A stretch of 64,000 nucleotides of DNA from NCBI GenBank assembly GCA_017478965.1, contig JAFVCV010000038.1, positions 23,977-87,976 of the forward strand. Direction: 5' to 3'. The stretch's first letter is position 1. Each line of letters begins with the position of its first letter. The translations under genes and the position numbers were made by a program. The notes under the pieces are model-generated. The model saw only the letters and a program-made list of their open reading frames with translations. It made no database searches and was not told where the DNA came from. This stretch comes from Ruminococcus sp. (GTDB lineage: Bacteria; Bacillota; Clostridia; Oscillospirales; Ruminococcaceae). Shown piece after piece: positions 14,793 to 61,485 of this stretch.

Positions 14793-15944
14793 ATGAGAGC
14801 GGGCAGGAAACTGAGGACCTTTGCGGTCTGCCTTGGAGCGGCGGTCATTCTGGCCGGGTGCGTGGGCAAAGGGAAGGCGGTCGGCGAAGAGAGCGACGGG
14901 CCTGAGGGGCTGCGGGTCGTCTCTGAAATGCAGCTTGAATACGCCCACGAATTCAGCGTCAGCTTATGCGAGGGGGGCTATGCCCTTATAGATATCGGTG
15001 AGGACGGGTTTCTCCTGGTGCCGGAGGGTGCGAAGGTCCCGGCAGATACTGAGGGGCGCACGGTCCTTGAACAGCCCATAGAGAATATCTACATGGCGGC
15101 ATCCTCGGCCATGGACCTCTTTGACAGCATAGGGAGCTTAGACCGGGTGAAGATGTCTGCCTATGAGGAGGACCGCTGGTCCTTGGAAAACGTCCGTCAG
15201 GCCATGGAGCGGGGCGAGATGGGTTATGCCGGGAAGTACAGTGCGCCGGACTATGAGCTGCTCGCTGCGCAGGAATGTGACCTGGCTGTGGAGTCTACCA
15301 TGATCTTTCACAGTCCCAGGGTCAAGGAAAAGCTTGAACAGCTGGGGATACCCGTGCTGGTGGAAAGGTCAAGCTACGAGAGCCACCCTCTGGGGAGAAT
15401 GGAGTGGATAAAGCTCTACGGACTTCTGATGGGGGACTATCCCGGAGCGGAGAAACGTTTTGAAGAGCTTACGAAGGGGCTGGAGGACCTGAAAGGGGAG
15501 AACTCCGGCGACGGTCCCAAGGCGGCATTTTTCAGTCTCAGCACCGGGGGCTGGGTGACTGTACACAAGCCGGGGAACTACTTTTCGAGAATGATAGAGC
15601 TGGCGGGAGGACGGTATCTGTTCACGCCGGAGGACCTGAACGTGGAGGAGAACGCACTTTCCACCATGAAGATACAGTTGGAGAGCTTTTATGAAAAGGC
15701 CGCAGAGGCCGATGTGCTCATATATAACAGCACCATCGTGGGGGAGCTCGGCAGCCTTGAGGAGCTGCTGGAAAAATGCCCGGTGCTGTCGGACCTGAGG
15801 GCTGTCAGGGAGGGCAGGGTCTGGTGCATAAGCGAGGATATGTTCCAGCACACCACGGCTGCGGCGGAAATGATAAGAGAGCTGAGTGCGGTGTTTGACG
15901 GCACGGCTCAGGACGAGATGGGATATCTTTACAGATTGAGATGA
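14793..15944 (+). CDS. BtuF/FecB-type (cluster A) ABC substrate-binding lipoprotein
   Basis: It has the lipobox ILAGC. The periplasmic-binding-protein pattern includes PDYELLAAQECDL, PVLVERS and WIKLYG. The start may be GTG 14787 (overlapping the previous stop) or ATG 14793. Confidence 0.8.
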   Translation: MRAGRKLRTFAVCLGAAVILAGCVGKGKAVGEESDGPEGLRVVSEMQLEYAHEFSVSLCEGGYALIDIGEDGFLLVPEGAKVPADTEGRTVLEQPIENIYMAASSAMDLFDSIGSLDRVKMSAYEEDRWSLENVRQAMERGEMGYAGKYSAPDYELLAAQECDLAVESTMIFHSPRVKEKLEQLGIPVLVERSSYESHPLGRMEWIKLYGLLMGDYPGAEKRFEELTKGLEDLKGENSGDGPKAAFFSLSTGGWVTVHKPGNYFSRMIELAGGRYLFTPEDLNVEENALSTMKIQLESFYEKAAEADVLIYNSTIVGELGSLEELLEKCPVLSDLRAVREGRVWCISEDMFQHTTAAAEMIRELSAVFDGTAQDEMGYLYRLR

Positions 15945-15959
15945 GCGGGGTGAGGACCG

Positions 15960-16994
15960 GTGGAAAAGACGGCAGGCGGCGGGAAGACAAGATATATTTT
16001 CGGCTTCGGCCTGCTGTCGGTGCTGGCCCTGGCCTTTTTTTGCCTCAACATCTGCCTTGGCAGCAGCGATATGTCCCCCGCAGAAGCCATAGGCTCCCTT
16101 TTTGGCGGAGGGACAGAAAGCGGCAGGAGGATAATTTTCAGCATAAGACTGCCAAGGACCTTAGCGGCGATGCTATTAGGGGGAGCGCTTTCGGTATCGG
16201 GACTGCTTTTGCAGAGCTTTTTCTCAAACCCCATAGCTGGACCCTTCGTACTTGGCATATCCTCAGGGGCAAAGCTGACGGTGGCGGCTGCCATGATATT
16301 CGCCCTTGAACACGGGGCGGCCCTGGGATCCCTTCCCATGACGGCGGCGGCTCTGGCCGGGGCCCTTGGGGCGGTGGGGGTCATAATGCTCATGTCGGGG
16401 CGGGTAAGGTCCATGGCACAGCTCATAGTGGCCGGGGTCATGGTGGGGTATATTTGCAGCGCACTGACGGAGCTTATGGTGACCTTTGCGGACGACGCCA
16501 ACATCGTGGACCTTCACAGCTGGTCCATGGGCAGTTTTTCCGGCATCAGCATGAGGGACGTGGGTTTTATAGCGGCGGCGGCGGTGCCGGCATTTATAGG
16601 GGCTTTCATGCTCTCGAAACCCATGAGTGCCTACCGGCTGGGGGAGAGCTACGCTAGGAGCGCCGGGGTGGACATCAGGGCATTCCGGACGGCGCTGGTG
16701 ATCCTTTCCAGCATACTCTCGGCCTGCGTCACGGCCTTTGCCGGGCCTGTGTCTTTCGTGGGGGTGGCAGTGCCGCACCTTATGAAGGCGCTTTTCGGCA
16801 CTTCTAAGCCCATAGTCATCATACCTGCATCACTTATCGGCGGCGGAGTCTTCTGCATGGGGTGCGACCTGGCGGCAAGGCTGATGTTTGCTCCGGTGGA
16901 GCTGAGCGTCAGCACGGTTACGGCTGTGCTGGGAGCGCCGGTGGTCATCGGGGTCATGCTTGAGAGAAGGGGGCGGAAAAATGATGGGCAGTGA
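15960..16994 (+). CDS. FecCD/BtuC-family ABC permease
   Basis: This multi-pass membrane protein carries RLPRTLAAMLLGGALSVSGLLLQ and FVGVAVPHL motifs typical of FecCD permeases. It starts with GTG. Confidence 0.88.
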   Translation: MEKTAGGGKTRYIFGFGLLSVLALAFFCLNICLGSSDMSPAEAIGSLFGGGTESGRRIIFSIRLPRTLAAMLLGGALSVSGLLLQSFFSNPIAGPFVLGISSGAKLTVAAAMIFALEHGAALGSLPMTAAALAGALGAVGVIMLMSGRVRSMAQLIVAGVMVGYICSALTELMVTFADDANIVDLHSWSMGSFSGISMRDVGFIAAAAVPAFIGAFMLSKPMSAYRLGESYARSAGVDIRAFRTALVILSSILSACVTAFAGPVSFVGVAVPHLMKALFGTSKPIVIIPASLIGGGVFCMGCDLAARLMFAPVELSVSTVTAVLGAPVVIGVMLERRGRKNDGQ

Positions 16995-18078
16995 ACCTGT
17001 CCTCGTGGCAGGGGGACTTGCCGGGGGGTACGGAAAAAAGCTGGTCTTTGAGGGCATGGAGCTGGAGGTAAGGGCCAAAGAGGTGCTGACCCTAATGGGT
17101 CCTAACGGTGCGGGGAAGTCCACGGTATTAAAGACTCTTGCCGGCCAGCTCAAAAGCTTCGGGGGACGGGTGGTCCTCTGCGGGCGGGATATGCAGGAAC
17201 AGAGCCGGGGAGAGAGAGCCGCCAAGGCGGCGGTGCTGCTGACAGGGCGGGTGGACACGGAAAGGATGACCTGCTTTGAAACTGCTGCGGCGGGCCGATA
17301 CCCCTACACCGGGCGGCTGGGGATACTGAGGGAGCAGGACGTAAGGGCGGTAAGAGACGCCATGGAGCTTACCGGGACCTGGGAACTGAGAGACAGGGAG
17401 CTTGGGGCGGTCAGCGACGGACAGCGGCAGCTGGTCATGACCGCAAGGGCAATAGCGCAGGAGCCGGAGATAATGCTGCTCGACGAGCCGACCTCATACC
17501 TTGACATCGACAGAAAGCTGCGGGTCCTGAGAATGCTGAGGGAATATGCGAATTCACACGGTACGGCGGTGGTGATGACCCTGCATGAGCTTGACCTTGC
17601 GCAGAGGTTCTCGGACAGGGTGCTCTGCATAAAGGAGGGCCGTCCCTTTATGACCGGGACGCCGGCGGAGGTCTTCCGTCCGGGGAATATCGAGGAGCTT
17701 TACGGTATGAGCGCCGGGGCCTATGACTGCCTTCACGGCACGGCGGAGCTTCTGAGGACCGGCCGGGAGCCGGAGGCCTTTGTCATCGGCGGCGGAGGAA
17801 TGGGCATGGAGGTCTACCGTGACCTGCAGCGCCGGGGGATACCCTTTGCGGCAGGGGTGATACATGAGAACGATACGGAGTATTTCACAGCCCTGACCTC
17901 GGCGGAGGAGGTCATAAGCGAGCGTGCCTTCGAGCCGGTGGGTGAGAAGGCCTACGGAAGGGCACGCCAGGTCATGAGGGACATTATGGCGAGGGGCGGC
18001 AGGGTGATATGCTGCTGTGAGAACTTCGGGACCATGAACAGGCTCAATCTGAAACTGAAGGAGGAGGCGGGACTTTGA
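16981..18078 (+). CDS. BtuD/FecE-type ABC ATPase with an extra C-terminal domain of roughly 100 aa
   Basis: Walker A GPNGAGKST, signature VSDGQRQ and Walker B MLLDEPTSYLD are present. The sequence continues well past the normal end of the ABC domain (GREPEAFVIGGGGMGMEVY...CCCENFG). Confidence 0.85.
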   Translation: MMGSEPVLVAGGLAGGYGKKLVFEGMELEVRAKEVLTLMGPNGAGKSTVLKTLAGQLKSFGGRVVLCGRDMQEQSRGERAAKAAVLLTGRVDTERMTCFETAAAGRYPYTGRLGILREQDVRAVRDAMELTGTWELRDRELGAVSDGQRQLVMTARAIAQEPEIMLLDEPTSYLDIDRKLRVLRMLREYANSHGTAVVMTLHELDLAQRFSDRVLCIKEGRPFMTGTPAEVFRPGNIEELYGMSAGAYDCLHGTAELLRTGREPEAFVIGGGGMGMEVYRDLQRRGIPFAAGVIHENDTEYFTALTSAEEVISERAFEPVGEKAYGRARQVMRDIMARGGRVICCCENFGTMNRLNLKLKEEAGL

Positions 18079-18382
18079 CGGACATACTTATGGTGGAGGA
18101 CAGCAGCGATATCGCCATGCTGCTGTGCGATTTCCTGAGGGCCAAGAGCTATACGGTCAGCGAGGCGGGTACCGGCGAGAGGGCCTTAGAGCTTTTGAGC
18201 GCTACGGCGCAAAGCTTATCCTTTTTGACCCCTTCCTGCGGGGCAGCAACAGCAAAGGCAAGAGCGGCAGCGGTCTGGGGCTTTATATCTGCCGGGAACT
18301 GATGCTCGCCCAGGAGGGCGATATCTTTGCCGCCATAGCCGAGGGCGAGATGAGAGTCACTGCTGTGTTCAGGATGGTCTGA
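18075..18382 (+). pseudogene. Remnant of a response regulator / histidine kinase pair (deletion fusion plus frameshift)
   Basis: The frame starting at 18075 gives a receiver N-terminus, MTDILMVEDSSDIAMLLCDFLRAKSYTVSEAGTGERALEL. The receiver continues in the +1 frame as FERYGAKLILFD, so a 1-nt loss in the T-run at 18193-18196 is likely. It then runs directly into the extreme C-terminus of an HK ATPase domain (RGSNSKGKSGSGLGLYICRELM...RVTAVF). Confidence 0.7.
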
Positions 18383-18388
18383 GGGCCT

Positions 18389-18427
18389 GCCTGTTCCCAT
18401 ACCGTGAGGTGGGAACAGGCTTTTTTT
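18389..18427 (+). terminator. Rho-independent terminator ending the uptake operon
   Basis: GCCTGTTCCCA (18389-18399) pairs with TGGGAACAGGC (18410-18420) and is followed by TTTTTTT. Confidence 0.85.
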
Positions 18428-18523
18428 ATCAGGTCACAGTCCGGGTCTTGGTCAAAGTGCAATAATGGCGGACGGGGGATTTGTGCAAAAGGGTAATTGT
18501 ATGTTCAGGGTGAGCGGAAATGA

Positions 18524-18553
18524 TTGACTTTGTGGAGGATATTGTGATATAAT
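18524..18553 (+). promoter_or_regulatory. Sigma-A type promoter of the dynamin/TerD/AIM24 operon
   Basis: TTGACT (18524-18529), an 18-nt spacer, then TGaTATAAT (extended -10, TATAAT at 18548-18553). This implies a 5' UTR of about 150 nt. Confidence 0.55.
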
Positions 18554-18705
18554 GAATTGATAATGGGTCACTATGCGTTTGCGTCAGAGTGACCGGCCGT
18601 ATGAGGAAACGGCAGGCCTTTGGAAGGCATATGAGTTATTGATAAAAAGTTTGAAGATGAGCTGCCCGGGGCGGGAAAATGGTCCTGGGAAAAGGAGGTT
18701 CGTTG

Positions 18706-20772
18706 ATGGAAAAACAGATCGATTACGGCAGCTATTCCGGATACAAGGAAACGGTCAGCGGCCTGACTGCGGACTTGCAGGAGCTTTTAAAGCTCAGCGA
18801 GGAGATAGCGCTGGTCAACACGGCGGAGTCCATAAGAGAGACGATAGAAAAGGCCAAGGACGAGCATTTTGAAGTCGCCATCGTGGGCGAGTTCAAAAGG
18901 GGCAAGAGCACCCTTATCAATGCGCTGTTAGGGCAGGAGATACTGCCGGCGGACGTGCTGCCTGCCACGGCTACCCTTAACAGAGTGACCTACAGCAAGG
19001 AGCCTTATGTTCAGGTGGAATATAAGAACGGGGACTCTGAGCGGGTGGATATCGACAGGCTGGAGGAGTATGTAACAAAGCTCACCAGCGAGAGCGAGCT
19101 GAAAGCGGAGACTGTCAAGGAGGCCACCGTTTATTACGACACTGAGTTCTGCCGCAACAATGTGGATATCATCGACACTCCTGGCCTGAACGATGACGAG
19201 CAGATGACCAACGTCACCCTTTCGATAATACCGAAGATAGACGCTGCGGTCTTCGTTATCAGTGCAAACTCGCCCTTTTCGCAGTTCGAGAAGGAGTTTC
19301 TGGAAAAGAAGATGCTGACCTCGGACGTGGGAAGGATAATCTTCGTAGTTAACTGTTTCGGGACCTTCTCACAGGAGGACGAGTCGAAGATAGTGGAGAC
19401 TGTCAGGACCAGGATAGGCCGCTACGTGATGGAGAAGGCCAAGAAGGTCATGGGGGAGGATTCGAGAGAATTCGCAGTCTATAAGAGAAAGATAGGCACT
19501 CCCAGGGTCATAGGCGTTTACGCCAAGAGGGCGCTGACCGCCAAGACCATCGGCAGCGAGGAGCTGCTGGAGCAGAGCAATTTCCCGGAGTTTGAAAGAG
19601 CACTGGAGACGCTGCTGACCAAGGAGAGGGGTGCGATCACTCTCCAGATACTGGCCAACAAGATAACCAACTCAGGCACTGAGGTGCTAAGGTCCATCGT
19701 TATGCAGGAGAATGCGCTGATGATGGCAAACGATGAGTTCATGGAAAAATACGACGCTGCCATCAAGGAGATCGATGAGATCAGGAATATGAAGAGGCAG
19801 GAGTTCGTAAAGATAAACAGCGCCGCCAATCAGGTATTTGACGACCTGAGGCCGGTGCTGGACAGCTACTGGTCGAATATCGAGGACGCTGCAATGCAGG
19901 TCATCGACAATTTCCAGATGTCCTCGGACGACTTCAAGAAGGACAGGCTCAAGCTGGTCAGCTCCAAGCTCACCGAGAAGATAAAGGAGAGCATGGAGGC
20001 CAGGGCGCAGATAATCTGCGAGCAGATACAGAACAGCATCAACCGTGCGGTCAGCGGCGAGGCTCAGAGACTGCAGGAATTCGAGGACGAGTTCTTTGAG
20101 GCTGTGGCAGCTATACAGAGAATGTTCACCGTCAGTGAGAGAGTGTCCAATAACGGCGGTATGCTGGATAAGGTCATAGGTGCGGCTACGGGTATGTACG
20201 GAGTCGGCGGCGTGTTCTTAGGTTTCCGGGAGAGCGGCGTGAAGGGTGCGCTCCTCGGGGGCGCTACAGGCCTGGCCGGGTTCTATGCCACCTTCTATGC
20301 AGCTACTTTCTTTGCGGGCTTTTTAGGCATCATGGGCGCACCGGTGGTGACGCTGTGTCTCATGGCCTTCGCCGGCATCGCAGGGACGTTCACCTCAAAC
20401 TTTGCCGTTGACAAGATACTGGTCAACGAGAGGATAGACAAGTATAAGTCCAACTTCAAGACCCACGTCAGGAAGCAGTTCCACGAGATGAAGCTCAACA
20501 ACGACTTTACCGAGACTGTAAGACGTCAGGTGTTCTCGTCCTTTGACAGCATCAAGAGCAAGATCGAGGAGGAGACTGAGATCATACTCAGAGACACTCA
20601 GGAGACTCTGGACAACCTTAACGACCTGAAGGCTGAGAAGTCCAGCGTTTCGCAGAAGGAGATGGAAAGACTGCACGTCATTGCGGAGACAGCCAGCAAT
20701 ATAGTTCAGGACGCTTATGCAGTAAGAAAGGCTCTGGCGGACGAGACGACCACTGAGGCAAAGAACGCCTGA
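18706..20772 (+). CDS. Bacterial dynamin-like GTPase 1 (DLP1) with a glycine-rich hydrophobic membrane-insertion segment
   Basis: It has the G1 motif VAIVGEFKRGKSTLINALLG, the G3 motif IIDTPGLND and long helical stalk regions. The hydrophobic segment is GGVFLGF...GLAGFYATFYAATFFAGFLGIMGAPVVTLCLMAFAGIAG. The ATG at 18706 follows AAAGGAGG (18691-18698). Confidence 0.85.
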   Translation: MEKQIDYGSYSGYKETVSGLTADLQELLKLSEEIALVNTAESIRETIEKAKDEHFEVAIVGEFKRGKSTLINALLGQEILPADVLPATATLNRVTYSKEPYVQVEYKNGDSERVDIDRLEEYVTKLTSESELKAETVKEATVYYDTEFCRNNVDIIDTPGLNDDEQMTNVTLSIIPKIDAAVFVISANSPFSQFEKEFLEKKMLTSDVGRIIFVVNCFGTFSQEDESKIVETVRTRIGRYVMEKAKKVMGEDSREFAVYKRKIGTPRVIGVYAKRALTAKTIGSEELLEQSNFPEFERALETLLTKERGAITLQILANKITNSGTEVLRSIVMQENALMMANDEFMEKYDAAIKEIDEIRNMKRQEFVKINSAANQVFDDLRPVLDSYWSNIEDAAMQVIDNFQMSSDDFKKDRLKLVSSKLTEKIKESMEARAQIICEQIQNSINRAVSGEAQRLQEFEDEFFEAVAAIQRMFTVSERVSNNGGMLDKVIGAATGMYGVGGVFLGFRESGVKGALLGGATGLAGFYATFYAATFFAGFLGIMGAPVVTLCLMAFAGIAGTFTSNFAVDKILVNERIDKYKSNFKTHVRKQFHEMKLNNDFTETVRRQVFSSFDSIKSKIEEETEIILRDTQETLDNLNDLKAEKSSVSQKEMERLHVIAETASNIVQDAYAVRKALADETTTEAKNA

Positions 20773-20823
20773 TCTTCGGGGCTTTGGAAAAGATCAGTGA
20801 CGGGAAATAAGGGAGGGCACTCG

Positions 20824-21801
20824 ATGAGTGATATAATAGAGAATGTCAATCCGCTGCTTCAGATCGATACGGGGTTTCGTTCATACCTTAACGCCTATAC
20901 CAGGTCCTACCAGAACCATATGGTGGACGGGAGCCTTGACTATGCTTTTGAATCGGACTTTGCGGTAAGGCAGAAGATAATGGGCCTTGGCGGCGCAGCA
21001 AAGCTGTTCAAGGCGGTGAACACAGCGGATGTTTCGGCGGAGGCAAAGCATCTGTTCATGAAGTGTGACCAGGTGGGGCCGCTGAAATATCCTGAGATAT
21101 ACGATATAGTGAAGAAGTGTGCCGAGAGGCTGGAGCTGATAGTACCCATAGTGTTCATCAGAGAGGACATGGACAGGCCCCTGGTATACTCCATAGCAAG
21201 CGAATTGATAGAACCCTGCATAGTGCTCACAAAGCAGCTCTGCGATATGTGCAAGGAGGACGAGCTGACGCTGCTTATTGGGTGTGAGTGCGGCAGGATA
21301 CAGAACAATCATTGTACTTACAACATGGCATATACATACATCAATACCAGCAGGAACGTGTTCAGGCCCATAGAAAGGTCCTTTACACAGCCTATAAACA
21401 GCCAGGTCATATCGGCCCTGGCGCAGTGGGTGAAATATGCGGACGTTACGGCGAGCCGGGCGGGCATGATATGCCTCGACAAGCCGGGACGGTATCTTGA
21501 TATAATGTGCGGACTTTACGCCAAGGGTTATACGGACTATTACGGCAGGCAGCAGGAGAATATCGACTTTGCTGAAATGACACGTTTGTCCGCAGAGATA
21601 CACTCAAGCACCTCACGCAGCATGAAGACCGACAGGGAGCTGACGGAGGTGGAAAGGTCGCTGCTTGCGGCTGGTGAGTTCCTTTACTGTCAGACGCTGT
21701 ATTCGTGGCGCAGGGACGTAGAGGACCTGGAGGGCCATGCCGAGAGCGGACAGATATGCGATGTGCGGACCAGTGTGATCGTCGGGAACGGAGGGCAGTA
21801 G
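20824..21801 (+). CDS. Hypothetical protein, M48/HtpX-like zincin fold with substituted metal ligands (probable pseudo-peptidase)
   Basis: The segment CIVLTKQLCDMCKEDELTLLIGCECGRIQNNH aligns by eye with the M48 consensus (..vLtsGLl..l..dEl.aVlaHElgHi.ngH), but HExxH is replaced by CECGR. The downstream KYADVTASRAG resembles the E..AD..a block without the Glu. The ATG at 20824 follows AAGGGAGGG. Confidence 0.45.
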   Translation: MSDIIENVNPLLQIDTGFRSYLNAYTRSYQNHMVDGSLDYAFESDFAVRQKIMGLGGAAKLFKAVNTADVSAEAKHLFMKCDQVGPLKYPEIYDIVKKCAERLELIVPIVFIREDMDRPLVYSIASELIEPCIVLTKQLCDMCKEDELTLLIGCECGRIQNNHCTYNMAYTYINTSRNVFRPIERSFTQPINSQVISALAQWVKYADVTASRAGMICLDKPGRYLDIMCGLYAKGYTDYYGRQQENIDFAEMTRLSAEIHSSTSRSMKTDRELTEVERSLLAAGEFLYCQTLYSWRRDVEDLEGHAESGQICDVRTSVIVGNGGQ

Positions 21802-21804
21802 GAT

Positions 21805-23571
21805 ATGAGCCATGAGAATATGATAACTGCCGATGAGAACATTCACGTTATCCGACAGAAATTGAACGATATAATAGACGATCCCAAGATAGCCAAGCTG
21901 CTCGGGGCGGACAGCGTAAGTCAGCTGAAGGAATATGACGGGCTGATAGCAAAGAAGTGCGAGGAACCTTTCACGCTCGTTATACTGGGCGAGTTCAAGA
22001 GAGGCAAGAGCACCATAATAAACGCCCTTTTAGGGAAAAATATCGAGCCTATCAACGTTACGCCGGAGACCTATACCATAAACGAGATAACCTTCGGGCA
22101 TATACAGAGCGTGGAGGCGATCCTGGAGAACGGGCAGAGGGTGCCTCTGGTGCTGGAGGATATCACCAGGGAGAACCTGGAGAAGCGCATGAAGCTTTTT
22201 CCCGCAAGGATAAGCAGCGTTCAGATAAAGGACAATGCGCCCATACTCAGGGACATAAGGATAGTAGATACGCCGGGGCTCTCGGACTTAGAGAGCTTGG
22301 ACAAGCAGGTGGAGGAGTATATAGTCAATGCGGACGCTATAATGTATGCGGCCTCATGTCTGCTGCCTTTTTCGGAGACTGAGCAGATATTCCTCGGCAG
22401 CCATGTGCAGCCACAGAGGTTCGGTATGCTGTATGTGCTGGTGAACATGATAGACGCACTGAATTCCATGGCGGACGTCAATAAGATCATGCGAAGGTTC
22501 AGGGGCATCGCTGAGAGGATAGTTCCGAATGCCATAGTTTACGGCATAAGCGGCGGCGATGAGCTAAGCAGAAAGCTCGGGAAGGACAGGCCTGCCGACA
22601 AGGGGACCAGGGAGTTCTATGAGACGCAGTTCCTACAGTTCGAGCTTTCGCTGAAAAGGGACATCATCATGCAGAAGGACGTCATAAGGAGCCAGAGGGT
22701 CTACACCATGCTCGATCAGATGCAGGCTGAGATAAGCTCCAAATTGCAGCTCCTGAGCGACATGACCGAGATGGACAAGCAGAAGCTGGAGCAGAAGGCT
22801 CTGGAGTTCGAGCAGCAGTGCGACGAGCTGGCGGCGGCACTGGAGAAGAAAAAGCCTGTGATACATCTTTCCATACTGGAGATGCAGCAGGAGGCCGAGA
22901 GCTGGATGTATGAGTTCTTCGCAAAGCTCAGGACCAGCATACTGGAATGCAGGGCAAAGGATGAAAACGGCGAGGACATCTATTCGCCGGAGGATATAGA
23001 GAAGTATTTCTATTCATTCCTGATGGAGAAGGTGGGCGAGGCCTACAGGCTCTGTATAGAAACTCACCGTGACAGGGTAGGGGAGCTGGTGGAAAAGACC
23101 GGCAGAGATCTGGCACAGACCCTTGGGATATCCGATATGGCAGAGGTCAGCAAGGCGCCGTCGGTGGACAGGATAATGATGTCAATGAACAAGAACGTCA
23201 CCAGGAGCGTCATGGGCGTAAAGCTCTTCGGCACAAGCGAGAATTTCCCGCCGGCGGCCATGAGCATTTTCAGCAGCATAATGAAAAAGAAAATGCAGAC
23301 CGATATCATTGATATCGCTCTGGAGAACTATGACGAGATAAGAATAAACATCGTCAAGGATATAAAGACCGTTTATCAGGACCTGGAGGTAAAGGCCATA
23401 TCCAGGCTTGACAGCCTTTATCAGTATCAGGTCGAGATGAGCAGAGACGCTATCGCCAAGGCCAAGGCCATGGCGGAGAGCGGCGACAACGCCGAACTCA
23501 ACGCCACCTTGCAGGAGGCTATAGAAAGGCTCAGAGAGCCTAAACGTATGCTGGCCGAGCAGGGATTGTGA
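21805..23571 (+). CDS. Bacterial dynamin-like GTPase 2 (DLP2), with no obvious transmembrane segment
   Basis: It has the G1 motif LVILGEFKRGKSTIINALLG, the G3 motif IVDTPGLSD and a long predicted coiled-coil/stalk C-terminal half. A GGAGGG RBS lies upstream. Confidence 0.85.
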   Translation: MSHENMITADENIHVIRQKLNDIIDDPKIAKLLGADSVSQLKEYDGLIAKKCEEPFTLVILGEFKRGKSTIINALLGKNIEPINVTPETYTINEITFGHIQSVEAILENGQRVPLVLEDITRENLEKRMKLFPARISSVQIKDNAPILRDIRIVDTPGLSDLESLDKQVEEYIVNADAIMYAASCLLPFSETEQIFLGSHVQPQRFGMLYVLVNMIDALNSMADVNKIMRRFRGIAERIVPNAIVYGISGGDELSRKLGKDRPADKGTREFYETQFLQFELSLKRDIIMQKDVIRSQRVYTMLDQMQAEISSKLQLLSDMTEMDKQKLEQKALEFEQQCDELAAALEKKKPVIHLSILEMQQEAESWMYEFFAKLRTSILECRAKDENGEDIYSPEDIEKYFYSFLMEKVGEAYRLCIETHRDRVGELVEKTGRDLAQTLGISDMAEVSKAPSVDRIMMSMNKNVTRSVMGVKLFGTSENFPPAAMSIFSSIMKKKMQTDIIDIALENYDEIRINIVKDIKTVYQDLEVKAISRLDSLYQYQVEMSRDAIAKAKAMAESGDNAELNATLQEAIERLREPKRMLAEQGL

Positions 23572-23592
23572 TATTCTGAAAGGTGGGAGGAT

Positions 23593-24903
23593 ATGGACGA
23601 GCTTTACGGGATACCTATGAACGTTACGCAGCCTATGGCTGCCGGGTCCATAATGAACGGTTCCGGCGCTCAGAGGACCATGGGCGCCATGGGGACAGAA
23701 CAGCTCATGGGAATGGCGGCGGCCCAGAGGACCCTCGGGGCGGTCAGCACACAGACCCTGATGACGGCGGCCGGTGCGGCTGCGGCGGCTTATTCCTCTC
23801 AGCAGAGCGATATGAGCGGCAGCTACAGCGCCAGCGGCGCAGGCTTTGGCCAGAACCCTTATGCCGCTCAGAACCAGTATCCCAGCCAGAACCAGTATCA
23901 GTATCCTGACCAGAACCGGTATCCAGGCAGTTACGGCGGGCAGGGCGTGATAGATATGCAGCCCATGGACCCTTTGCAGCAGGGCATGGGCGGGTATGTG
24001 CCGAACATCGTGCCGCCGAATATGTCAAATTCCGGCGGCCAGTACGGTCAGCCGAACTACGCAAATCAGCCGAACTACGCTAATCAGCCGAACTACGCTA
24101 ATCAGCCGAACTACGCTAATCAGCCGAGCTACGTTAATCAGCCGAACTACGGAGTGCAGCAGCCCCAGCAGGGGAATTTTTACAGCGCCGGCGGAAACCA
24201 GCAGCCGGTGCAGCAGAACAGGCCCACGGCGGTCCAGGGGGGCGGGTATTATTCCTCTCAGGCCATGCCGCAGGGTGTGGGAGGGGCGGCTCCTCAGAAA
24301 CAGCTGCCGCCTAAGCGCAAAAGGGCGCCCAGACAGGGCCAGACCATGGCCAAGGGTCAGAAGTATTCCATACAGAGCCTGGGCGGAAATCAGTGCAGGA
24401 AGCTGAAAATAGGCGTGGGCTGGGATATAAAGGACGCCAGGTGTGAGCTGGACGCATCAGCATTCATGCTCGGTGCAGACGGCAGGGTCCTGGGGGACGA
24501 ATGGTTCATTTTCTACGGACAGCCTGAAAGCCCGGAGAAAAGCGTCAGGTATCAGGTCTATGCGGAGGACGCCTCTGCGCCGGACGACGGTGCTATCGAG
24601 ATAGACCTTGACAGGATAGACCCGAGGGTGGAAAAGATAGTCATTGCGGTGACTATCTATGAGGCCTTTGAGCAGAAGCTGAATTTCGGCATGGCGGAAA
24701 ACGTCTATGCCAGGGTCATGGACGGCGCCGGGGGCAGAGAGCTTGCCAGGTTCACCTTAGCGGAGAACTATCCAAACGTGACGGCTATGGTGCTCGGAGA
24801 GCTTTACAGGTATAAAGGTGCATGGAAATTCAATGCGGTCGGCTCCGGCGTGTACAGGGACCTGGCGGGGTTCTGCGGAATGTACGGCGTTGCGCTGGAG
24901 TGA
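23593..24903 (+). CDS. TerD-domain protein with a long N-terminal Q/N/P/Y/G-rich low-complexity region
   Basis: The C-terminal ~190 aa (KIGVGWDIK...ELDASAFMLGADGRV...WFIFYGQ...EIDLDRI...KIVIAVTIYEA...FNAVGSG) match the TerD/CAPAB fold family. The N-terminal ~240 aa are low complexity and include the (QPNYAN)n repeats. Confidence 0.85.
   Translation: MDELYGIPMNVTQPMAAGSIMNGSGAQRTMGAMGTEQLMGMAAAQRTLGAVSTQTLMTAAGAAAAAYSSQQSDMSGSYSASGAGFGQNPYAAQNQYPSQNQYQYPDQNRYPGSYGGQGVIDMQPMDPLQQGMGGYVPNIVPPNMSNSGGQYGQPNYANQPNYANQPNYANQPNYANQPSYVNQPNYGVQQPQQGNFYSAGGNQQPVQQNRPTAVQGGGYYSSQAMPQGVGGAAPQKQLPPKRKRAPRQGQTMAKGQKYSIQSLGGNQCRKLKIGVGWDIKDARCELDASAFMLGADGRVLGDEWFIFYGQPESPEKSVRYQVYAEDASAPDDGAIEIDLDRIDPRVEKIVIAVTIYEAFEQKLNFGMAENVYARVMDGAGGRELARFTLAENYPNVTAMVLGELYRYKGAWKFNAVGSGVYRDLAGFCGMYGVALE
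24049..24156 (+). repeat. Six tandem copies of an 18-bp unit (CAGCCGAACTACGCWAAT) encoding QPNYAN repeats
   Basis: This was read directly. Units start at 24049, 24067, 24085, 24103, 24121 and 24139. The first four are near-identical; the last two are diverged. Confidence 0.95.
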
Positions 24904-24923
24904 CCGTTCATAGGGGAGATCAT

Positions 24924-25667
24924 ATGATAACTTTTGAAACTTGCAATGAGCTTTGTCTGAAAATAACCTGCCAGGGCGGCGGGGGACAGATATTCACAAA
25001 GGCCGGGGCCTTTATAGGCGGCGAGTGCAGGGGTCCGAAAAACTATACCTTCACCAAGGTGATGCTTGGCCCTCAGGGTAATTTCGGACAGGCACTTTTA
25101 GGTCAGATAGCACGCCGGTTCACGGGGGAGAACCTGCCGCTGATGAAGGTAGAATTCAACGGCGACAGTGTGACCTATTATGCAAACGACCAGCAGCACG
25201 TACTGGTCTACAAGCTCATGCCCAACGAGACTATCAGCGTGGAGAGCGAGAACATCTTAGCTTTCTCCAGCGAGTGCAAATACGGGGTAAGGTTTTTAGG
25301 GCAGGGCGTTATCTCGCAGAAGGGCCTTGCGACCTCTACACTGACGGGACAGGGCGACAATTCCTATGTGGCGGTGCTCATCGACGGCAACCCACTGGTG
25401 CTGAGCAACTACAGCAGCGGCTCTACCATCGAGGCGGACCCGGACGCTGTGGTCTGCTGGATAGGGGCTGACCCCACTCTCAGGACAGATATCTCCTGGC
25501 GCAACTTCATCGGGCAGAGCTCCGGTGAGTCGTATATGTTTGAATGGTCCGGCGGCGGTGCAGCTACTGTCATCATCCAGCCCATGGAAAGGGCCTCGGG
25601 CGTGGACGTTTCCATGGACGGCAGACGGTCCGGCAGCAGGCCTTCAGCCCAGCGGAGGATCTATTGA
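24924..25667 (+). CDS. AIM24-family (DUF124) protein
   Basis: The beta-rich sequence carries the family's recurring pattern (FTGENLPLMKVEFNGD, ISVESENILAFS, GQGDNSYVAVLIDG, IEADPDAVVCW, SSGESYMFEWSGGGAATVIIQP). The ATG at 24924 follows AGGGGAG. The longer upstream ORF overlaps the TerD gene and is unlikely. Confidence 0.72.
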   Translation: MITFETCNELCLKITCQGGGGQIFTKAGAFIGGECRGPKNYTFTKVMLGPQGNFGQALLGQIARRFTGENLPLMKVEFNGDSVTYYANDQQHVLVYKLMPNETISVESENILAFSSECKYGVRFLGQGVISQKGLATSTLTGQGDNSYVAVLIDGNPLVLSNYSSGSTIEADPDAVVCWIGADPTLRTDISWRNFIGQSSGESYMFEWSGGGAATVIIQPMERASGVDVSMDGRRSGSRPSAQRRIY

Positions 25668-25679
25668 TAACGATTACAG

Positions 25680-25706
25680 GACCGCAGTTTTTTCTGCGGT
25701 CTTTTT
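25680..25706 (+). terminator. Rho-independent terminator ending the five-gene operon
   Basis: GACCGCAG (25680-25687) pairs with CTGCGGTC (25694-25701) and is followed by TTTTT. Confidence 0.78.
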
Positions 25707-25835
25707 ACCTGGCCGGCCAGCGGTAGAGCGCACCGTGCTTTCAGGAAGGTCTGCTGGCGGCGGAGCTTTTACGGGTGTGCCGCTATATTTAACGCAGGCT
25801 GATTTGTAAACTTTTAAGCAATTGCACCGCTGTGC

Positions 25836-25864
25836 TTGAAAAATATATGAAATGGTAGTATAAT
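25836..25864 (+). promoter_or_regulatory. Sigma-A type promoter
   Basis: TTGAAA (25836-25841), a 17-nt spacer, then TATAAT (25859-25864). Confidence 0.45.
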
Positions 25865-25917
25865 GATTATTGACAGACCGGCCGGGAACGGCCGGATATC
25901 AGAGGGAGAGATATGAT

Positions 25918-27099
25918 ATGTTGATAGAAGAGGTAAAAAAAGAACTGATACAGCACATTATACCGTTCTGGAACAGTCTGAGAGACGACGAGAACGGGGG
26001 GTTCTACGGATTCAAGGGCTTTGACCTGAAACTCGACAAGCAGGCCGACAAGGGGGTCATACTCCATTCAAGGATACTGTGGTTCTATTCAAACGCCTAT
26101 ATGACCCTGGGGGACAAGGCGCTGCTGGATAACGCTGAACACGCTTATAGGTTCATCAGGGACAAGTGCGTGGATTATCAGTATGGCGGCGTATACTGGA
26201 TGATGGACTTCAGGGGCGGCGTGGCTGACGATATGAAACACACCTACAATATAGCCTTTGCCATCTATGCTCTTTCAAGCTATTACAGAGCCAGCGGCGA
26301 TGAAAGTGCGCTGAACTTAGCCTACAAGCTTTTTTTGGACGTAGAGGAGAACACGCTGGACGAGTACGGATATCAGGAGGCCTTTGACAGGACCTGGAAC
26401 CTGGTGGACAACGAGGCACTGAGCGAGAACGGCCTGAAAGCCGACAAGACCATGAACGCTATCCTGCATCTCATCGAGGCATATACTGAGCTTTACAGAG
26501 CCGACAAGAACAGGCCGGGGGCTGAAAAGGTCGCCCAGCGGCTGAAATTCCAGCTCGGCCAGATGAGGGATATCGTATATACTCCTGAGACTAACGCTTT
26601 GAAGGTGTTTTTTGACACGGCATTCAACCTGGTGGGGGATATCCATTCCTACGGTCACGACATAGAGGCCACCTGGCTCATGGACAGGGCCTGCGATGTT
26701 CTGGGGGACGAGGAGCTGAAAAAACAGTTTGCTGAGATGGATCTTAAAATTTCCCGCAATATCCTTGATATCGCTTTTGAAGACGGCGCTCTGAACAACG
26801 AGAGCGAGCACGGGGCCGTTGACAGGAAGAGAGTATGGTGGGTCCAGGCCGAGGCCGTGGTGGGCTTCATAAACGCTTATCAGCACTGCGGGGAAAAGAA
26901 GTTCCTTGAAGCCGCAGGTTCCGTATGGGAGTACATAAAGTCTGACATCATCGACAAGAGGGAAGGCTCGGAGTGGTATTCGGAGGTGTCCTTCGGTCAT
27001 GAGCCCCATGACTGGAAGGAGATCGTCGGCCCGTGGAAGTGCCCTTACCATAACGGGAGAATGTGCATGGAGGTCATAAATAGAAAGGTCGATCTTTGA
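25918..27099 (+). CDS. AGE-family (N-acylglucosamine 2-epimerase / cellobiose 2-epimerase-like) protein
   Basis: An (alpha/alpha)6-barrel family pattern is present (IIPFWNSLRDDENGGFYG, HSRILWFYS, GGVYWMMD, HLIEAY, HDIEATWL, WWVQAEAV, YHNGRMC). The ATG at 25918 follows AGAGGGAGAG. Confidence 0.78.
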   Translation: MLIEEVKKELIQHIIPFWNSLRDDENGGFYGFKGFDLKLDKQADKGVILHSRILWFYSNAYMTLGDKALLDNAEHAYRFIRDKCVDYQYGGVYWMMDFRGGVADDMKHTYNIAFAIYALSSYYRASGDESALNLAYKLFLDVEENTLDEYGYQEAFDRTWNLVDNEALSENGLKADKTMNAILHLIEAYTELYRADKNRPGAEKVAQRLKFQLGQMRDIVYTPETNALKVFFDTAFNLVGDIHSYGHDIEATWLMDRACDVLGDEELKKQFAEMDLKISRNILDIAFEDGALNNESEHGAVDRKRVWWVQAEAVVGFINAYQHCGEKKFLEAAGSVWEYIKSDIIDKREGSEWYSEVSFGHEPHDWKEIVGPWKCPYHNGRMCMEVINRKVDL

Positions 27100-59071: not shown

Positions 59072-61015
59072 TTATTTTGCCTTTGTGCGTATCTCTTCGT
59101 CAAGCTTTGCGATAATGTCGTCAACGGGAACGTTCGGCATCTCGCCTTCTTTTCTGGAGCGTACAGTTACTGTGCCGGCGGCGACTTCGTTGTCGCCTAC
59201 GATGAGCATATAGGGTATCCTGTCAAGACGTGCCTGCTTTATCTTGGGGCCGATGTTATCGTCCTCGGCGTCAACAGTCACTCTCATGCCCATTTCGGCC
59301 ATTCTGTCGGCTATCTTCTGAGCGTAGCCGTTGTGCTCAGGCTTGATGGGCAGCACCCTTACCTGCTCGGGGGCTAACCAAAGGGGCAGCACTCCTGCAT
59401 ACTTCTCCAGCAGAAGAGCCAGGGTCCTTTCATAGCAGCCCACGGAAGTTCTGTGGATTATATAAGGCATCTTCATCTTGCCGTCCTTGTCAACATACTC
59501 CATGCCGAATTTCTTGGCTATCTGCATATCTATCTGGATAGTGATAAGAGTGTCCTCCTTGCCGAAAACATTCTTTATCTGTATATCCAGCTTTGGTCCG
59601 TAGAAGGCAGCCTCGTCAATTCCGATGTCGTAATCAAGGCCTATGTCGTCAAGTATCTTCTTCATAGCGCCCTGGGCAAGGTCCCACTGCTCGGCAGTGC
59701 CTTCGTACTTGTCCTTTCTGTTGGGGTCCCACTGAGAGAAACGGTAGCTTACGTCCTCTGCAAGGCCGATAGTTTCCAGGCAGTACTTGGCCAGTGCCAG
59801 ACAGCCCTTGAATTCATCCTCCAGCTGCTCGGGCCTGATGATGAGATGCCCCTCGGATATGGTGAACTGCCTTACCCTGATAAGGCCGTGCATCTCGCCG
59901 CTGTCCTCATTCCTGAAAAGAGTTGACGTTTCACCCAGTCTCATGGGCAGGTCCCTGTAGGAACGCTTTCTGTTGAGAAATACCTGATACTGGAACGGAC
60001 AGGTCATTGGCCTCAACGCAAAGCACTCTTTCGTATCGTCGTCCGGATCCCCCAGAATGAACATACCGTCACGATAGTGGTCCCAGTGACCGCTTATCAT
60101 ATAAAGGTCTTTCTTCGACATGAAAGGCGTTTTCGTCAGCTGATAGCCTCTCTTGTACTCCTCGTCCTCTATCCATCTCTGAAGGGTCTGTATGACCTTA
60201 GCGCCCTTGGGCAGCAGTATAGGCAGGCCCTGCCCGATATAGTCCACCGTTGTGAAATACTCCAGCTCACGGCCGATCTTGTTGTGGTCACGGAGCTTGG
60301 CCTCCTCCATCTGCTTCAGGTGCGCCTCCAGCAGCGACGCCTTGGGGAAGGCTGTGCCATAGATCCTTGACATCACTTTGCCGTCCTCAGCCTTGCCCCA
60401 GTATGCTCCTGTACACTGAGTGAGCTTGACGGCCTTCACAGGCGCAACGCTCATAAGATGGGGACCGGCGCAGAGGTCGATGAAGTCTCCCTGCTGATAG
60501 AAGCTCAGAGCTTCGCCTCTGTCATTGTGCTTTTCTATAAGCTCTACTTTGTAGTCCTCATTTCTCTCTTTCATAAGGGCCAGAGCATCCTCATAGCCAA
60601 GCTCGGACCTGGTCAGCTCATAGCCCTCTTTGGCCAGCCTTTTCATCTCGGCTTCCAGCTTTTCCAGGTCGGCGGGAGTAAAGGGCTTCTCAACATCAAA
60701 ATCATAATAGAACCCAGTTTCCGTAGCGGGCCCTCTGCCAAGCTTTGCGCCGGGGTAGAGATCTTTGACAGCCTGCGCCAACAGGTGGGACGCAGTGTGC
60801 CAGAATACCTCCTTGCCGGCCTTTGAATCAAATGTCATTACCTCGAACTCGCAGCTGCTGTCGATGACCGTCCTCAGATCTCTGACCTCGCCGTTTATCT
60901 TCACACAGCAGGCGGCCTTGTAAAGCCCCATGCCAATGCCCTTTATTATCTCACAGGCGGGCATAGCCTGCTCGATCTCCCTGACCGAACCGTCTTTAAG
61001 TTTCAGCTCTATCAT
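59072..61015 (-). CDS. thrS: Threonine--tRNA ligase
   Basis: This 647-aa protein has a TGS domain N-terminus, an editing domain (HTASHLLAQA) and class II motifs (FRNEDSGEMHGLIRVRQF, GFYGPKLD). A C-terminal anticodon-binding domain is present. Confidence 0.96.
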   Translation of the reverse strand: MIELKLKDGSVREIEQAMPACEIIKGIGMGLYKAACCVKINGEVRDLRTVIDSSCEFEVMTFDSKAGKEVFWHTASHLLAQAVKDLYPGAKLGRGPATETGFYYDFDVEKPFTPADLEKLEAEMKRLAKEGYELTRSELGYEDALALMKERNEDYKVELIEKHNDRGEALSFYQQGDFIDLCAGPHLMSVAPVKAVKLTQCTGAYWGKAEDGKVMSRIYGTAFPKASLLEAHLKQMEEAKLRDHNKIGRELEYFTTVDYIGQGLPILLPKGAKVIQTLQRWIEDEEYKRGYQLTKTPFMSKKDLYMISGHWDHYRDGMFILGDPDDDTKECFALRPMTCPFQYQVFLNRKRSYRDLPMRLGETSTLFRNEDSGEMHGLIRVRQFTISEGHLIIRPEQLEDEFKGCLALAKYCLETIGLAEDVSYRFSQWDPNRKDKYEGTAEQWDLAQGAMKKILDDIGLDYDIGIDEAAFYGPKLDIQIKNVFGKEDTLITIQIDMQIAKKFGMEYVDKDGKMKMPYIIHRTSVGCYERTLALLLEKYAGVLPLWLAPEQVRVLPIKPEHNGYAQKIADRMAEMGMRVTVDAEDDNIGPKIKQARLDRIPYMLIVGDNEVAAGTVTVRSRKEGEMPNVPVDDIIAKLDEEIRTKAK

Positions 61016-61187
61016 AAAAATACCTCCTAAGAAATTCAGTTATCCTGTTGATGCTCACGGTGTGATCTGTACGTATAAGGCGCACGCAATGCGGCGGTAT
61101 AGCCAATGCTCCCTGGCAAACTGTAAAATATCCTGTTTTTATCTGCCCTTCGCATAGTATCATCACCCCCCTGGCCCGCAGCCGGAT

Positions 61188-61450
61188 AAAAAAAGCCCCA
61201 CGCAAGCTCTCGCTCACATGGGACGTTATAAACGTGGTTCCACCCAGTTTCACAGGGACACAAAAACACGGACCCTGCCTCATAAAGTCTTTAACGCAGA
61301 ACTGCGGCGTGTATTGGACGCACTCCGGGGCGGTTTCTGTAAACGCTGCAAAACGCCTTGCTTTCAGCCGGTGACAAGGCTCTCTTTCGTTCTGCCTTCG
61401 CATGAACAGCTTCCCCATCAAAGTTTTGAAATATATGTGCCTTCGCACTT
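61188..61450 (-). promoter_or_regulatory. T-box leader (tRNA-Thr sensing) of thrS
   Basis: The minus-strand reading shows an AGAGA-type box (GAAAGAGAGCC) and GGCTGAAAG. The T-box core is CTGGGTGGAACCACG (plus-strand 61233-61247). A terminator hairpin ending in GGGGCTTTTTTT follows (A-run 61188-61194 on plus). A candidate specifier GAA-ACC-G places a Thr ACC codon at 61332-61334. Confidence 0.75.
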
Positions 61451-61456
61451 GTATAC

Positions 61457-61485
61457 ATTCTAGCACTATATCCCAAAAATGTCAA
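61457..61485 (-). promoter_or_regulatory. Sigma-A type promoter of the thrS leader
   Basis: On the minus strand: TTGACA (61480-61485), a 17-nt spacer, then TAGAAT (61457-61462). Confidence 0.5.

Follow-up and report, generated by a model that had tools for sequence, protein, structure and literature searches.

The stretch of Ruminococcus sp. contig JAFVCV010000038.1 analysed here comprises 64,000 nt (hereafter the window; coordinates are window positions on the plus strand unless stated otherwise). Between 18.7 and 25.7 kb it carries five open reading frames (ORFs), head to tail and all on the plus strand, which encode a membrane-anchored dynamin-like protein (DLP1), an M48-like protein, a second, soluble dynamin-like protein (DLP2), a TerD-domain protein and a protein of the AIM24/DUF124 family (Table 1). 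Our comparative analysis indicates that two modules have been brought together here, a triad formed by DLP1, the M48-like protein and DLP2, and a TerD-AIM24 pair with a history of its own.

Operon layout

The intergenic gaps are short (51, 3, 21 and 20 nt, in gene order) and a purine-rich Shine-Dalgarno sequence lies ahead of every one of the five starts. The promoter-like site upstream of DLP1 matches 11 of 12 consensus positions and ranks in the top two of a 12-kb scan. As a promoter it is only plausible, because the total number of such sites in these 12 kb (10) does not exceed the expectation after shuffling (7.3 +/- 2.7). The hairpin that closes the operon (25678-25703), overlooked by a simple scanner and recovered by folding, has a folding energy of -16.9 kcal/mol (z = -4.5), and none of 200 shuffled sequences folded equally well. 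A scan of positions 18000-26000, which include an operon leader of about 150 nt, matched no Rfam family. The five genes are probably co-transcribed. A first-pass annotation, made from the DNA sequence alone, had proposed this gene content, gaps of 3-51 nt with a ribosome-binding site for each gene, and a single promoter and terminator for the whole unit; all ORFs and domains, every junction and both signals were recovered.

Table 1. Genes and signals of the five-gene operon and of its upstream boundary
Feature	Position	Strand	Evidence
Two-component-system remnant, outside the operon, marking its upstream boundary	18075-18382	+	tblastn with the intact genes of locus L004
Intrinsic terminator of the preceding unit, insulating the operon	18389-18420	+	12-bp stem with 7 G-C pairs, then TTTTTTT
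Sigma-70-type promoter-like site	18524-18553	+	TTGACT, 18-nt spacer with TG extension, TATAAT
DLP1, membrane-anchored dynamin-like GTPase, 688 aa	18706-20772	+	Dynamin_N (PF00350), E 3.8e-33; alternative ATG at 18679
M48-like protein, soluble putative pseudo-peptidase, 325 aa	20824-21801	+	Peptidase_M48, 18.5 bits (cut-off 20.3)
DLP2, soluble dynamin-like GTPase, 588 aa	21805-23571	+	Dynamin_N (PF00350), E 5.9e-20
TerD-domain protein, 436 aa	23593-24903	+	TerD (PF02342), residues 251-431, E 8.5e-57
Tandem 18-nt repeat in the TerD gene	24048-24151	+	Tandem Repeats Finder, 5.8 copies, 95% matches
AIM24/DUF124-family protein, 247 aa	24924-25667	+	AIM24 (PF01987), E 8.4e-18, 65.2 bits (cut-off 25.7)
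Intrinsic terminator ending the operon	25678-25707	+	10-bp hairpin (25678-25703), then TTTTT

Conservation of the triad in related genomes

When an alignment of the M48-like protein was used to scan genomes, one for each species, it retrieved 80 loci, all from Ruminococcus, Oscillospiraceae or Clostridia, and three direct look-ups brought this clade sample to 83. Gene order was scored by tblastn with the five window proteins. The M48-like protein of the closest locus is 81% identical to that of the window, and those of R. albus are 76-77% identical. DLP1, the M48-like gene and DLP2 follow one another in this order in 77 of the 83 loci, the remaining six being cut by contig ends. TerD or AIM24 was detected by tblastn in none of the 83 loci; 68 of the 77 ordered triads are followed by at least 2.5 kb of downstream sequence. 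The divergence of the three triad genes from their window counterparts is rank-correlated across the clade (Spearman 0.93-0.95), and the upstream flanks of the triad can still be aligned at the DNA level among R. albus-type species. The synteny, the concordant divergence and the alignable flanks indicate that the triad has been inherited vertically as one unit. In one metagenome-assembled genome of Oscillospiraceae (locus L001), the triad is followed, at a distance of about 3 kb, by a Band_7/SPFH (flotillin-like) gene (15868-16863 of that locus), which may be a coincidence.

The dynamin-like proteins

Judged by their GTPase domains, DLP1 and DLP2 are bacterial dynamin-like proteins, and DLP1 also qualifies by a hydrophobic paddle segment (residues 529-568; maximum Kyte-Doolittle value 2.09 in a 19-residue window). 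DLP2 has no hydrophobic segment, in which it resembles LeoA, and the expected division into a membrane-anchored and a soluble partner was thereby borne out. The motifs GEFKRGKST (G1) and DTPG (G3) are conserved in 145 and 123 sequences, respectively; DLP1 has both, and DLP2 conserves G1, G3 and the NxxD motif of G4. The GTPase domains of the two proteins are 34% identical to each other, and DLP1 is 61-91% identical over 76 species-level loci. The best solved relative of DLP1 is the Nostoc BDLP (2j68, E 3.3e-26), followed by both chains of the Campylobacter DLP pair (5owv, chains C and A).

The first-pass annotation had pointed to the LeoA/LeoBC proteins of the Eleos defence system as possible counterparts and had recommended a DefenseFinder/PADLOC-type search. 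In a PADLOC run, Leo-type models were matched by the two DLPs only. DLP1 matches the LeoBC model (E 9.2e-24, positions 56-577 of 601) and the LeoA model (E 2e-23), DLP2 gives only a weak N-terminal match to LeoA in the P-loop region (positions 40-106 of 559), and the M48-like, TerD and AIM24 proteins have no PADLOC match. With the LeoA/HP0731 model of NCBIfam the score is 23.4 bits, far from the cut-off of 325.

The M48-like protein

In the M48-like protein of the window, CECGR takes the place of the HExxH zinc site. Throughout the clade the consensus at this site is xECG[R/K], with C, S, M, A or I in the first position and an invariant Glu, and the motif QN.H comes next. The third zinc ligand, which lies in the SRxxExxxD motif, is also altered: the family consensus WSRAAEVTCDRAG reads WVKYADVTASRAG in the window, a change from Glu to Asp, and alignments A1 and A2 show VKYADVTASRAG in place of SRAAEVTCDRAG at the downstream motif of the third ligand. 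With two of the three zinc ligands lost and the third changed, the window protein is by these motifs catalytically dead, as the first-pass description of an M48-like protein without zinc ligands had implied. It stays below the Pfam threshold for Peptidase_M48 (Table 1), which many of its relatives exceed.

The fold was also compared at the structural level. An AlphaFold2 model of the protein has a confidence score (pLDDT) of 67, with core residues above 80. Foldseek aligned its core with the HtpX domain 3cqb with a probability of 1.00, a TM-score of 0.70 (normalised by target length) and a root-mean-square deviation of 2.3 Å over 90 columns. The cores of Ste24, BlaR1 and selecase were matched as well, all E-values being at least 0.028 for a model of this confidence. 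Searched against PDB sequences, the M48-like profile gave no significant match.

The loss of two zinc ligands, the alteration of the third and the sub-threshold Pfam score would be expected if the gene were a functionless, decaying relic lying in a DLP pair that alone matters. The evolutionary record makes this extremely improbable. The ratio of nonsynonymous to synonymous divergence (dN/dS, Nei-Gojobori method) is 0.04-0.11 for the M48-like gene, compared with 0.02-0.06 for DLP1 and 0.02-0.05 for DLP2, at dS values of 0.16-0.9. All 80 species loci preserve an intact reading frame, and alignment A1, with its 16 sequences, has 65 invariant residues, among them the Glu at the catalytic position and the QN.H motif. 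Moreover, several proteins from other lineages of the M48 family (P0243, P0249, P0343, P0349 and P0370) have lost the first zinc-binding His (RECGH or RECGR) and are still full-length. Because of its low dN/dS, the M48-like protein is best described as a conserved, functional pseudo-enzyme under strong purifying selection, and the independent His losses elsewhere in the family suggest a recurrent shift towards a non-catalytic role. Such repeated loss of zinc ligands under purifying selection amounts to a natural experiment that separates binding from catalysis.

A wider DLP-M48-DLP family across phyla

A profile search of 1.8 billion representative proteins retrieved 1047 relatives of the M48-like protein, the named members coming from Clostridium, Lachnospiraceae, Syntrophomonadaceae, Nostocales, Candidatus Accumulibacter and Treponema. 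No relative of this M48 family was found in 2.9 million viral contigs. The full-length distant homologues (about 320 aa) have an intact HECGH site, with RECGH in a few lineages. The genes are arranged as DLP - (zinc-ribbon genes) - DLP (about 680 aa) - M48 - DLP (about 600 aa) in C. formicaceticum, Goleter, Ca. Accumulibacter and Treponema. Two metagenomic loci repeat the order DLP-DLP-M48-DLP, and 80 further metagenome loci have a DLP on both sides of M48 wherever the contig is long enough. In total, the complete ordered triad is present in 62 of 87 distant loci, with no exception on contigs of sufficient length, and neither TerD nor AIM24 was found in any of the 87. On the evidence of these sequences, the DLP-M48-DLP cassette is a multi-phylum one, with members in Bacillota, Cyanobacteria, Pseudomonadota and Spirochaetota. 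The cassette DLPs of a Nostocales genome were considered as orthologues of the crystallised Nostoc BDLP and turned out to be paralogues only (E of about 1e-31).

The Ruminococcus version differs from this common form in several respects. Among distant loci of at least 12 kb, 32 of 36 contain three DLP GTPase domains, three contain four and one contains two, which is the number found in the Ruminococcus clade. A strongly hydrophobic segment near residue 537 is present in all 60 upstream DLPs, in 31% of the downstream DLPs and in 38% of the third DLPs. By this comparison, three DLPs and an M48 protein with HECGH make up the common form, and the Ruminococcus form, with two DLPs and a ligand-less M48-like protein, is a reduced one. 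Small DZR or zinc-ribbon proteins recur in the catalytic cassettes, between the third DLP and DLP1 or after DLP2 (L090/L091, 2842-3809 and 8842-9210; L096, 3519-4928; L093, 9870-10808), and are absent from the Ruminococcus version.

In about 15% of the complete loci the downstream DLP is elongated. Nine such proteins were compared with Pfam: four carry a TIR domain (L124, L159, L163 and L165), two a CHAT domain (L092 and L153) and two a Ser/Thr kinase domain (L158 and L171), and one has no extra domain. An integrase gene adjoins locus L090.

The TerD-AIM24 pair

The TerD domain of the window protein aligns over its full length with K. pneumoniae TerD (2kxt, E 7.4e-34) and likewise with 3ibz. 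The N-terminal half of the protein is of low complexity and rich in Q, N, G and Y, and the 18-nt tandem repeat of the gene encodes NQPNYA repeats within it. The N-termini of related TerD proteins vary in length and contain the repeats GYNxQPNNGYNNGG and GAAANPVGAVM. Because the length differs even between near-identical relatives (456 versus 495 aa; L084, 6486-7973, versus L085, 3280-4650), the number of repeats appears to be unstable. The Ca2+-binding loop of K. pneumoniae TerD reportedly has the canonical form GDN(R/L)TG(E/A)GDGDDE. The window TerD has YAEDASAPDDGA at the position of this acidic loop, so that HTGDNRTGEGDGDDE of the K. pneumoniae protein is replaced by YQVYAEDASAPDDGA. The loss is common to the AIM24-linked TerD proteins of the window, L084, L085 and L087, whereas other TerD paralogues, those of L089, retain the loop. 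Ca2+ sensing by TerD, which the first-pass annotation had taken as the input of the system, can therefore not be assumed, since the GDNxTGEGDGDDE loop is degenerate throughout the AIM24-linked subclade.

Homologues of the AIM24 protein number more than 2000; those close to it come from Ruminococcus, and the exact window protein occurs on three contigs according to the protein index. A PDB sequence search with AIM24 gave no match, and its AlphaFold2 model (pLDDT 51) is too poor for a fold search. TerD adjoins AIM24 in most of the sampled loci. L084-L086 contain a gene for a 335-aa protein, followed by TerD (456-495 aa) and an AIM24 protein that is 85% identical to that of the window; L177 combines a TerD of 458 aa with an AIM24 that is 86% identical; and in L087 and L088 a short TerD (244 aa) and AIM24 lie beside a kinase, a PP2C phosphatase and a sigma factor. 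In L089 AIM24 is accompanied by several TerD paralogues, which lie close by on both sides. No DLP gene was found in any of these contexts (L084-L089 and L177). The stand-alone TerD-AIM24 units have their own -10 box and ribosome-binding site before TerD and a hairpin after AIM24, whereas the window TerD has no such promoter of its own and starts 21 nt past the stop codon of DLP2. The 335-aa gene upstream of TerD in L084-L086 was considered as a relative of the M48-like gene and discarded, as the two share no similarity. In L087 (3940-8747), the TerD-AIM24 genes lie directly downstream of the Ser/Thr kinase and PP2C phosphatase genes and upstream of a sigma factor of the extracytoplasmic function type, an arrangement that recalls, by analogy, the kinase/phosphatase modules of the TerY-P type.

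The association of TerD with AIM24, a pair known from ter-type stress clusters, is not new: Anantharaman, Iyer and Aravind (2012) had already reported the linkage, according to a quotation in PMC5822837. The window pair and the ter cluster share a TerD gene immediately beside an AIM24 gene. They differ in that the window lacks TerB, TerC, TerZ, TelA and biosynthetic genes; of the ter-cluster members TerZABCDE, TelA and TerY none lies beside the window TerD, which has AIM24 as its only companion. The window TerD further differs from its ter-cluster counterpart in its long low-complexity N-terminus and its degenerate Ca2+ loop, and the pair has been captured into another operon. Taken together, the sequence comparisons portray TerD-AIM24 as an independently conserved pair of separate origin.

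Two modules in one operon

None of the 170 triad loci (83 from the clade and 87 distant ones) contains TerD or AIM24, the closest relatives of the window AIM24 (85-86% identical) belong to stand-alone TerD-AIM24 units, and the five-gene arrangement was seen only in this window. We consider it probable that two modules, each conserved independently of the other, have been juxtaposed in this operon and that the triad constitutes a DLP1/DLP2 machine regulated by its M48(-like) partner. The juxtaposition is so far restricted to the lineage of this genome. The TerD-AIM24 module (23593-25667) would have lost its own promoter and would be read through from the dynamin operon. Its co-expression with the triad is either a recent accident or a lineage adaptation, and not a conserved design. 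Neither annotation nor study of the window should treat the five genes as a single conserved system.

The first-pass annotation had regarded all five genes as one module responding to envelope damage or phage infection, in which TerD senses Ca2+ and acts with AIM24 and the dynamin pair. Such a unit would fit with the single promoter and terminator, with gaps of only 3-51 nt and with the lack of a terminator between DLP2 and TerD; in addition, ter clusters and DLPs are both tied to membrane stress and phage resistance. The survey of DLP-DLP-TerD-AIM24 co-occurrence that it called for nevertheless leaves little room for this idea, which we regard as improbable: the triad loci devoid of TerD and AIM24 include those of relatives with 79-81% identical M48-like proteins, the closest TerD-AIM24 units stand alone behind their own promoter, and the Ca2+ loop is degenerate in precisely this TerD subclade. 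The same annotation had foreseen, as the outcome that would speak against it, a lack of synteny with conservation of the DLP pair alone. The five genes are indeed not syntenic in other genomes, but the M48-like gene is invariably kept together with the DLPs. An assembly chimera at the DLP2/TerD junction could also produce an arrangement confined to a single window. This explanation hardly deserves credit, however, in view of a third-codon-position G+C content (GC3) and a codon usage that are homogeneous across the junction, a DLP2 that is complete to its C-terminus, a proper ribosome-binding site inside the 21-nt gap and the occurrence of the exact AIM24 protein on three contigs.

Comparison with known systems

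Several described systems consist of paralogous Dynamin_N GTPases that are encoded together, as here: DLP1/DLP2 of Campylobacter jejuni (5owv), the Nostoc BDLP with its tandem partner (2j68) and the fused DynA of B. subtilis. Like the triad, they are of the BDLP/mitofusin class, with one member that carries a hydrophobic membrane paddle. Unlike them, the triad always has an M48(-like) gene between the DLPs and, outside the Ruminococcus clade, usually a third DLP, and in sequence it resembles the described pairs only as a paralogue would. The gene contexts of cyanobacterial DLPs have been reviewed; the clades named there are KGK, HSR1, chaperone and tandem ones, and M48 is not among them.

The Eleos or 'Dynamins' system (LeoA and LeoBC), which is made up of two consecutive DLPs, protects against jumbo phages and requires both P-loops (Millman et al., 2022). 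The triad resembles it as a two-DLP operon whose DLP1 matches the PADLOC models of LeoBC and LeoA over most of their length. In contrast, Eleos contains no peptidase gene, whereas the M48-like gene separates the DLPs here; the match of DLP2 to LeoA is confined to the P-loop region and the NCBIfam LeoA score is far below threshold. Eleos operons also lie beside defence systems in about 60% of cases (Millman et al., 2022), as opposed to the metabolic and syntenically conserved neighbourhood of the triad.

A more distant parallel is offered by mitochondria, where OMA1, an HtpX-related M48 peptidase, cleaves the dynamin-like OPA1 (PMC2806285). In both cases an M48-family zinc peptidase is paired with a membrane-anchored GTPase of the dynamin family. 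The parallel is an analogy only. The M48 proteins of the bacterial cassettes are mostly soluble, that of the window is inactive, and the window DLPs are of the BDLP/mitofusin class and not of the OPA1/Mgm1 class.

The architecture of the cassette also brings to mind the DO-GTPase/GAP1 systems (Kaur et al., 2020, eLife), in which a paralogous GTPase pair occurs with a constant third component, zinc ribbons and variable effectors. The cassette shares with them the GTPase pair, the constant third component, the zinc-ribbon proteins and effectors of the TIR, caspase-like and kinase types. However, the DO-GTPases belong to another TRAFAC family and are not dynamins, and their third component is GAP1, not M48. 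The survey of conflict systems by Kaur et al. (2020) mentions neither dynamin nor M48. The claim that the pseudo-peptidase belongs to no described dynamin system stood in the searchable literature, in which the dynamin systems contain no M48. The DLP-M48-DLP triad is apparently the new part of the locus, the TerD-AIM24 part being already known.

Proposed function and the possibility of an immune role

Heterotypic membrane action has been shown for Campylobacter DLP1/DLP2 and for B. subtilis DynA. By extension, DLP1 would insert into the membrane by its hydrophobic paddle and pair with the soluble DLP2, and the two could work together as a heterotypic machine, powered by GTP, for remodelling, tethering or sealing the membrane. 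The M48(-like) protein would be the dedicated regulatory partner of this machine. Where it is catalytic, it probably processes a DLP or a membrane substrate, if the analogy with OMA1 and OPA1 holds, while in the Ruminococcus clade it may act by binding alone, as a pseudo-enzyme adaptor or switch. The role of the triad may be to maintain membrane integrity under stress, possibly including phage infection. To our knowledge, how bacterial DLPs are regulated, and why they are so often paired, is largely unknown. An M48 peptidase encoded between two DLP genes is thus a concrete and testable candidate regulator, which parallels the protease control of mitochondrial dynamins; if this proposal is true, the DLP-M48-DLP cassette would be a bacterial counterpart of the OMA1-OPA1 logic.

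Several observations weigh against our preferred reading of the operon as an M48-regulated dynamin machine joined incidentally to TerD-AIM24. A minority of distant cassettes have DLP2 fused to TIR, CHAT or kinase domains, which speaks for a family role in immunity or conflict rather than in housekeeping membrane repair, and the PADLOC matches of DLP1 to LeoBC and LeoA (E of about 1e-23) point the same way. The model of the M48-like protein is of moderate quality only, with residues 1-75 unmodelled. Co-transcription of TerD-AIM24 with the triad across a 21-nt gap could be adaptive instead of incidental. Finally, no description of a DLP-M48 operon was found in open-access papers and bioRxiv, and one may exist elsewhere.

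Two immune scenarios follow from such observations. The more specific one holds that the triad is a dedicated anti-phage system, an Eleos variant in which the DLPs would detect or oppose infection at the membrane and the M48 protease would serve as activator or effector. It draws on the LeoBC and LeoA matches of DLP1, on the precedent of a two-DLP operon validated as a defence that needs both P-loops (Millman et al., 2022), on the fusions at the DLP2 position to TIR (four), CHAT (two) and Ser/Thr kinase (two) domains, which are typical effectors of conflict systems, on the integrase next to L090 and on the resemblance to DO-GTPase systems in combining a GTPase pair with a constant third component and variable effectors. 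We nevertheless find it rather unlikely. The window version has no effector fusion and its M48 protein is catalytically dead; its chromosomal neighbourhood is metabolic and is kept among related species; and the triad is found in at least 80 species-level genomes of one clade, in which its three genes diverge concordantly. In the same direction, the NCBIfam LeoA/HP0731 model reaches only 23 bits of the 325 needed, DLP2 covers no more of the LeoA model than positions 40-106, and relatives are missing from the 2.9 million viral contigs. The broader scenario, in which the family is an undescribed, multi-phylum immune or conflict system with an obligate M48 partner, the dead M48-like protein acts as regulator in Ruminococcus, and TerD-AIM24 has been captured in this genome, is a tentative one that we take more seriously, while still doubting it. 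The effector fusions raise the chance of an immune role for the wider family; such a role is less certain for the Ruminococcus version, because its neighbourhood is conserved and metabolic and it has no effectors. The TIR, CHAT and kinase fusions provide a lead for the discovery of defence systems, and part of the family perhaps belongs to the bacterial immune repertoire.

Flanks, composition and genomic neighbourhood

The decayed two-component system noticed next to the operon in the first-pass annotation could be matched to an intact counterpart. In the closest relative, locus L004 (4297-6191), the same regulator and kinase genes are intact and lie directly upstream of DLP1. By tblastn with these genes, positions 18081-18227 of the window correspond to residues 2-50 of the response regulator (53% identity) and positions 18221-18373 to residues 356-406 of the histidine kinase (55% identity). 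The remnant is, by this alignment, the product of an internal deletion of about 1.6 kb that fused approximately codon 50 of the regulator to approximately codon 356 of the kinase. A conserved two-component or ABC-transporter neighbour was considered as a regulator of the triad and rejected, since that two-component system is confined to L004 and, as a remnant, to the window.

Upstream of the operon lie genes for CbiK, a substrate-binding protein, FecCD and an ABC ATPase; downstream are genes for a GlcNAc-2-epimerase-like protein, MtnA, a GH5 cellulase and an ABC exporter. The neighbourhood in the window is metabolic (cobalamin/iron uptake and sugar metabolism) and is not a defence island. A location in a defence island, one of the points that the first-pass annotation had wished to see surveyed, found no support in these metabolic neighbours, on which PADLOC itself was not run, nor in flanks that are kept among related species.

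The first three operon genes have a G+C content of 51-53%, and the lower G+C of the operon had been taken as a hint of acquisition. It is explained by amino-acid composition. In the requested profile, which covers four operon genes because an overlap filter excluded the AIM24 ORF, GC3 is 0.67-0.735 (window mean 0.69 +/- 0.04), and in codon-usage distance these genes do not stand out from the window. As GC3 and codon usage equal those of the window, there is no compositional sign of recent acquisition.

Two further observations concern the window outside the operon. A 156-aa ORF on the minus strand (60996-61466) clearly deviates in composition: its GC3 is 0.51 (window mean 0.69), and no other ORF has a codon-usage distance as large as its 0.21. 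The ORF may have come from a foreign source, or it may not be a real gene. The first 30 kb (1-30000) combine a strongly positive GC skew (0.12-0.29) with a gene content that lies almost entirely on the plus strand, which is consistent with a leading-strand position.

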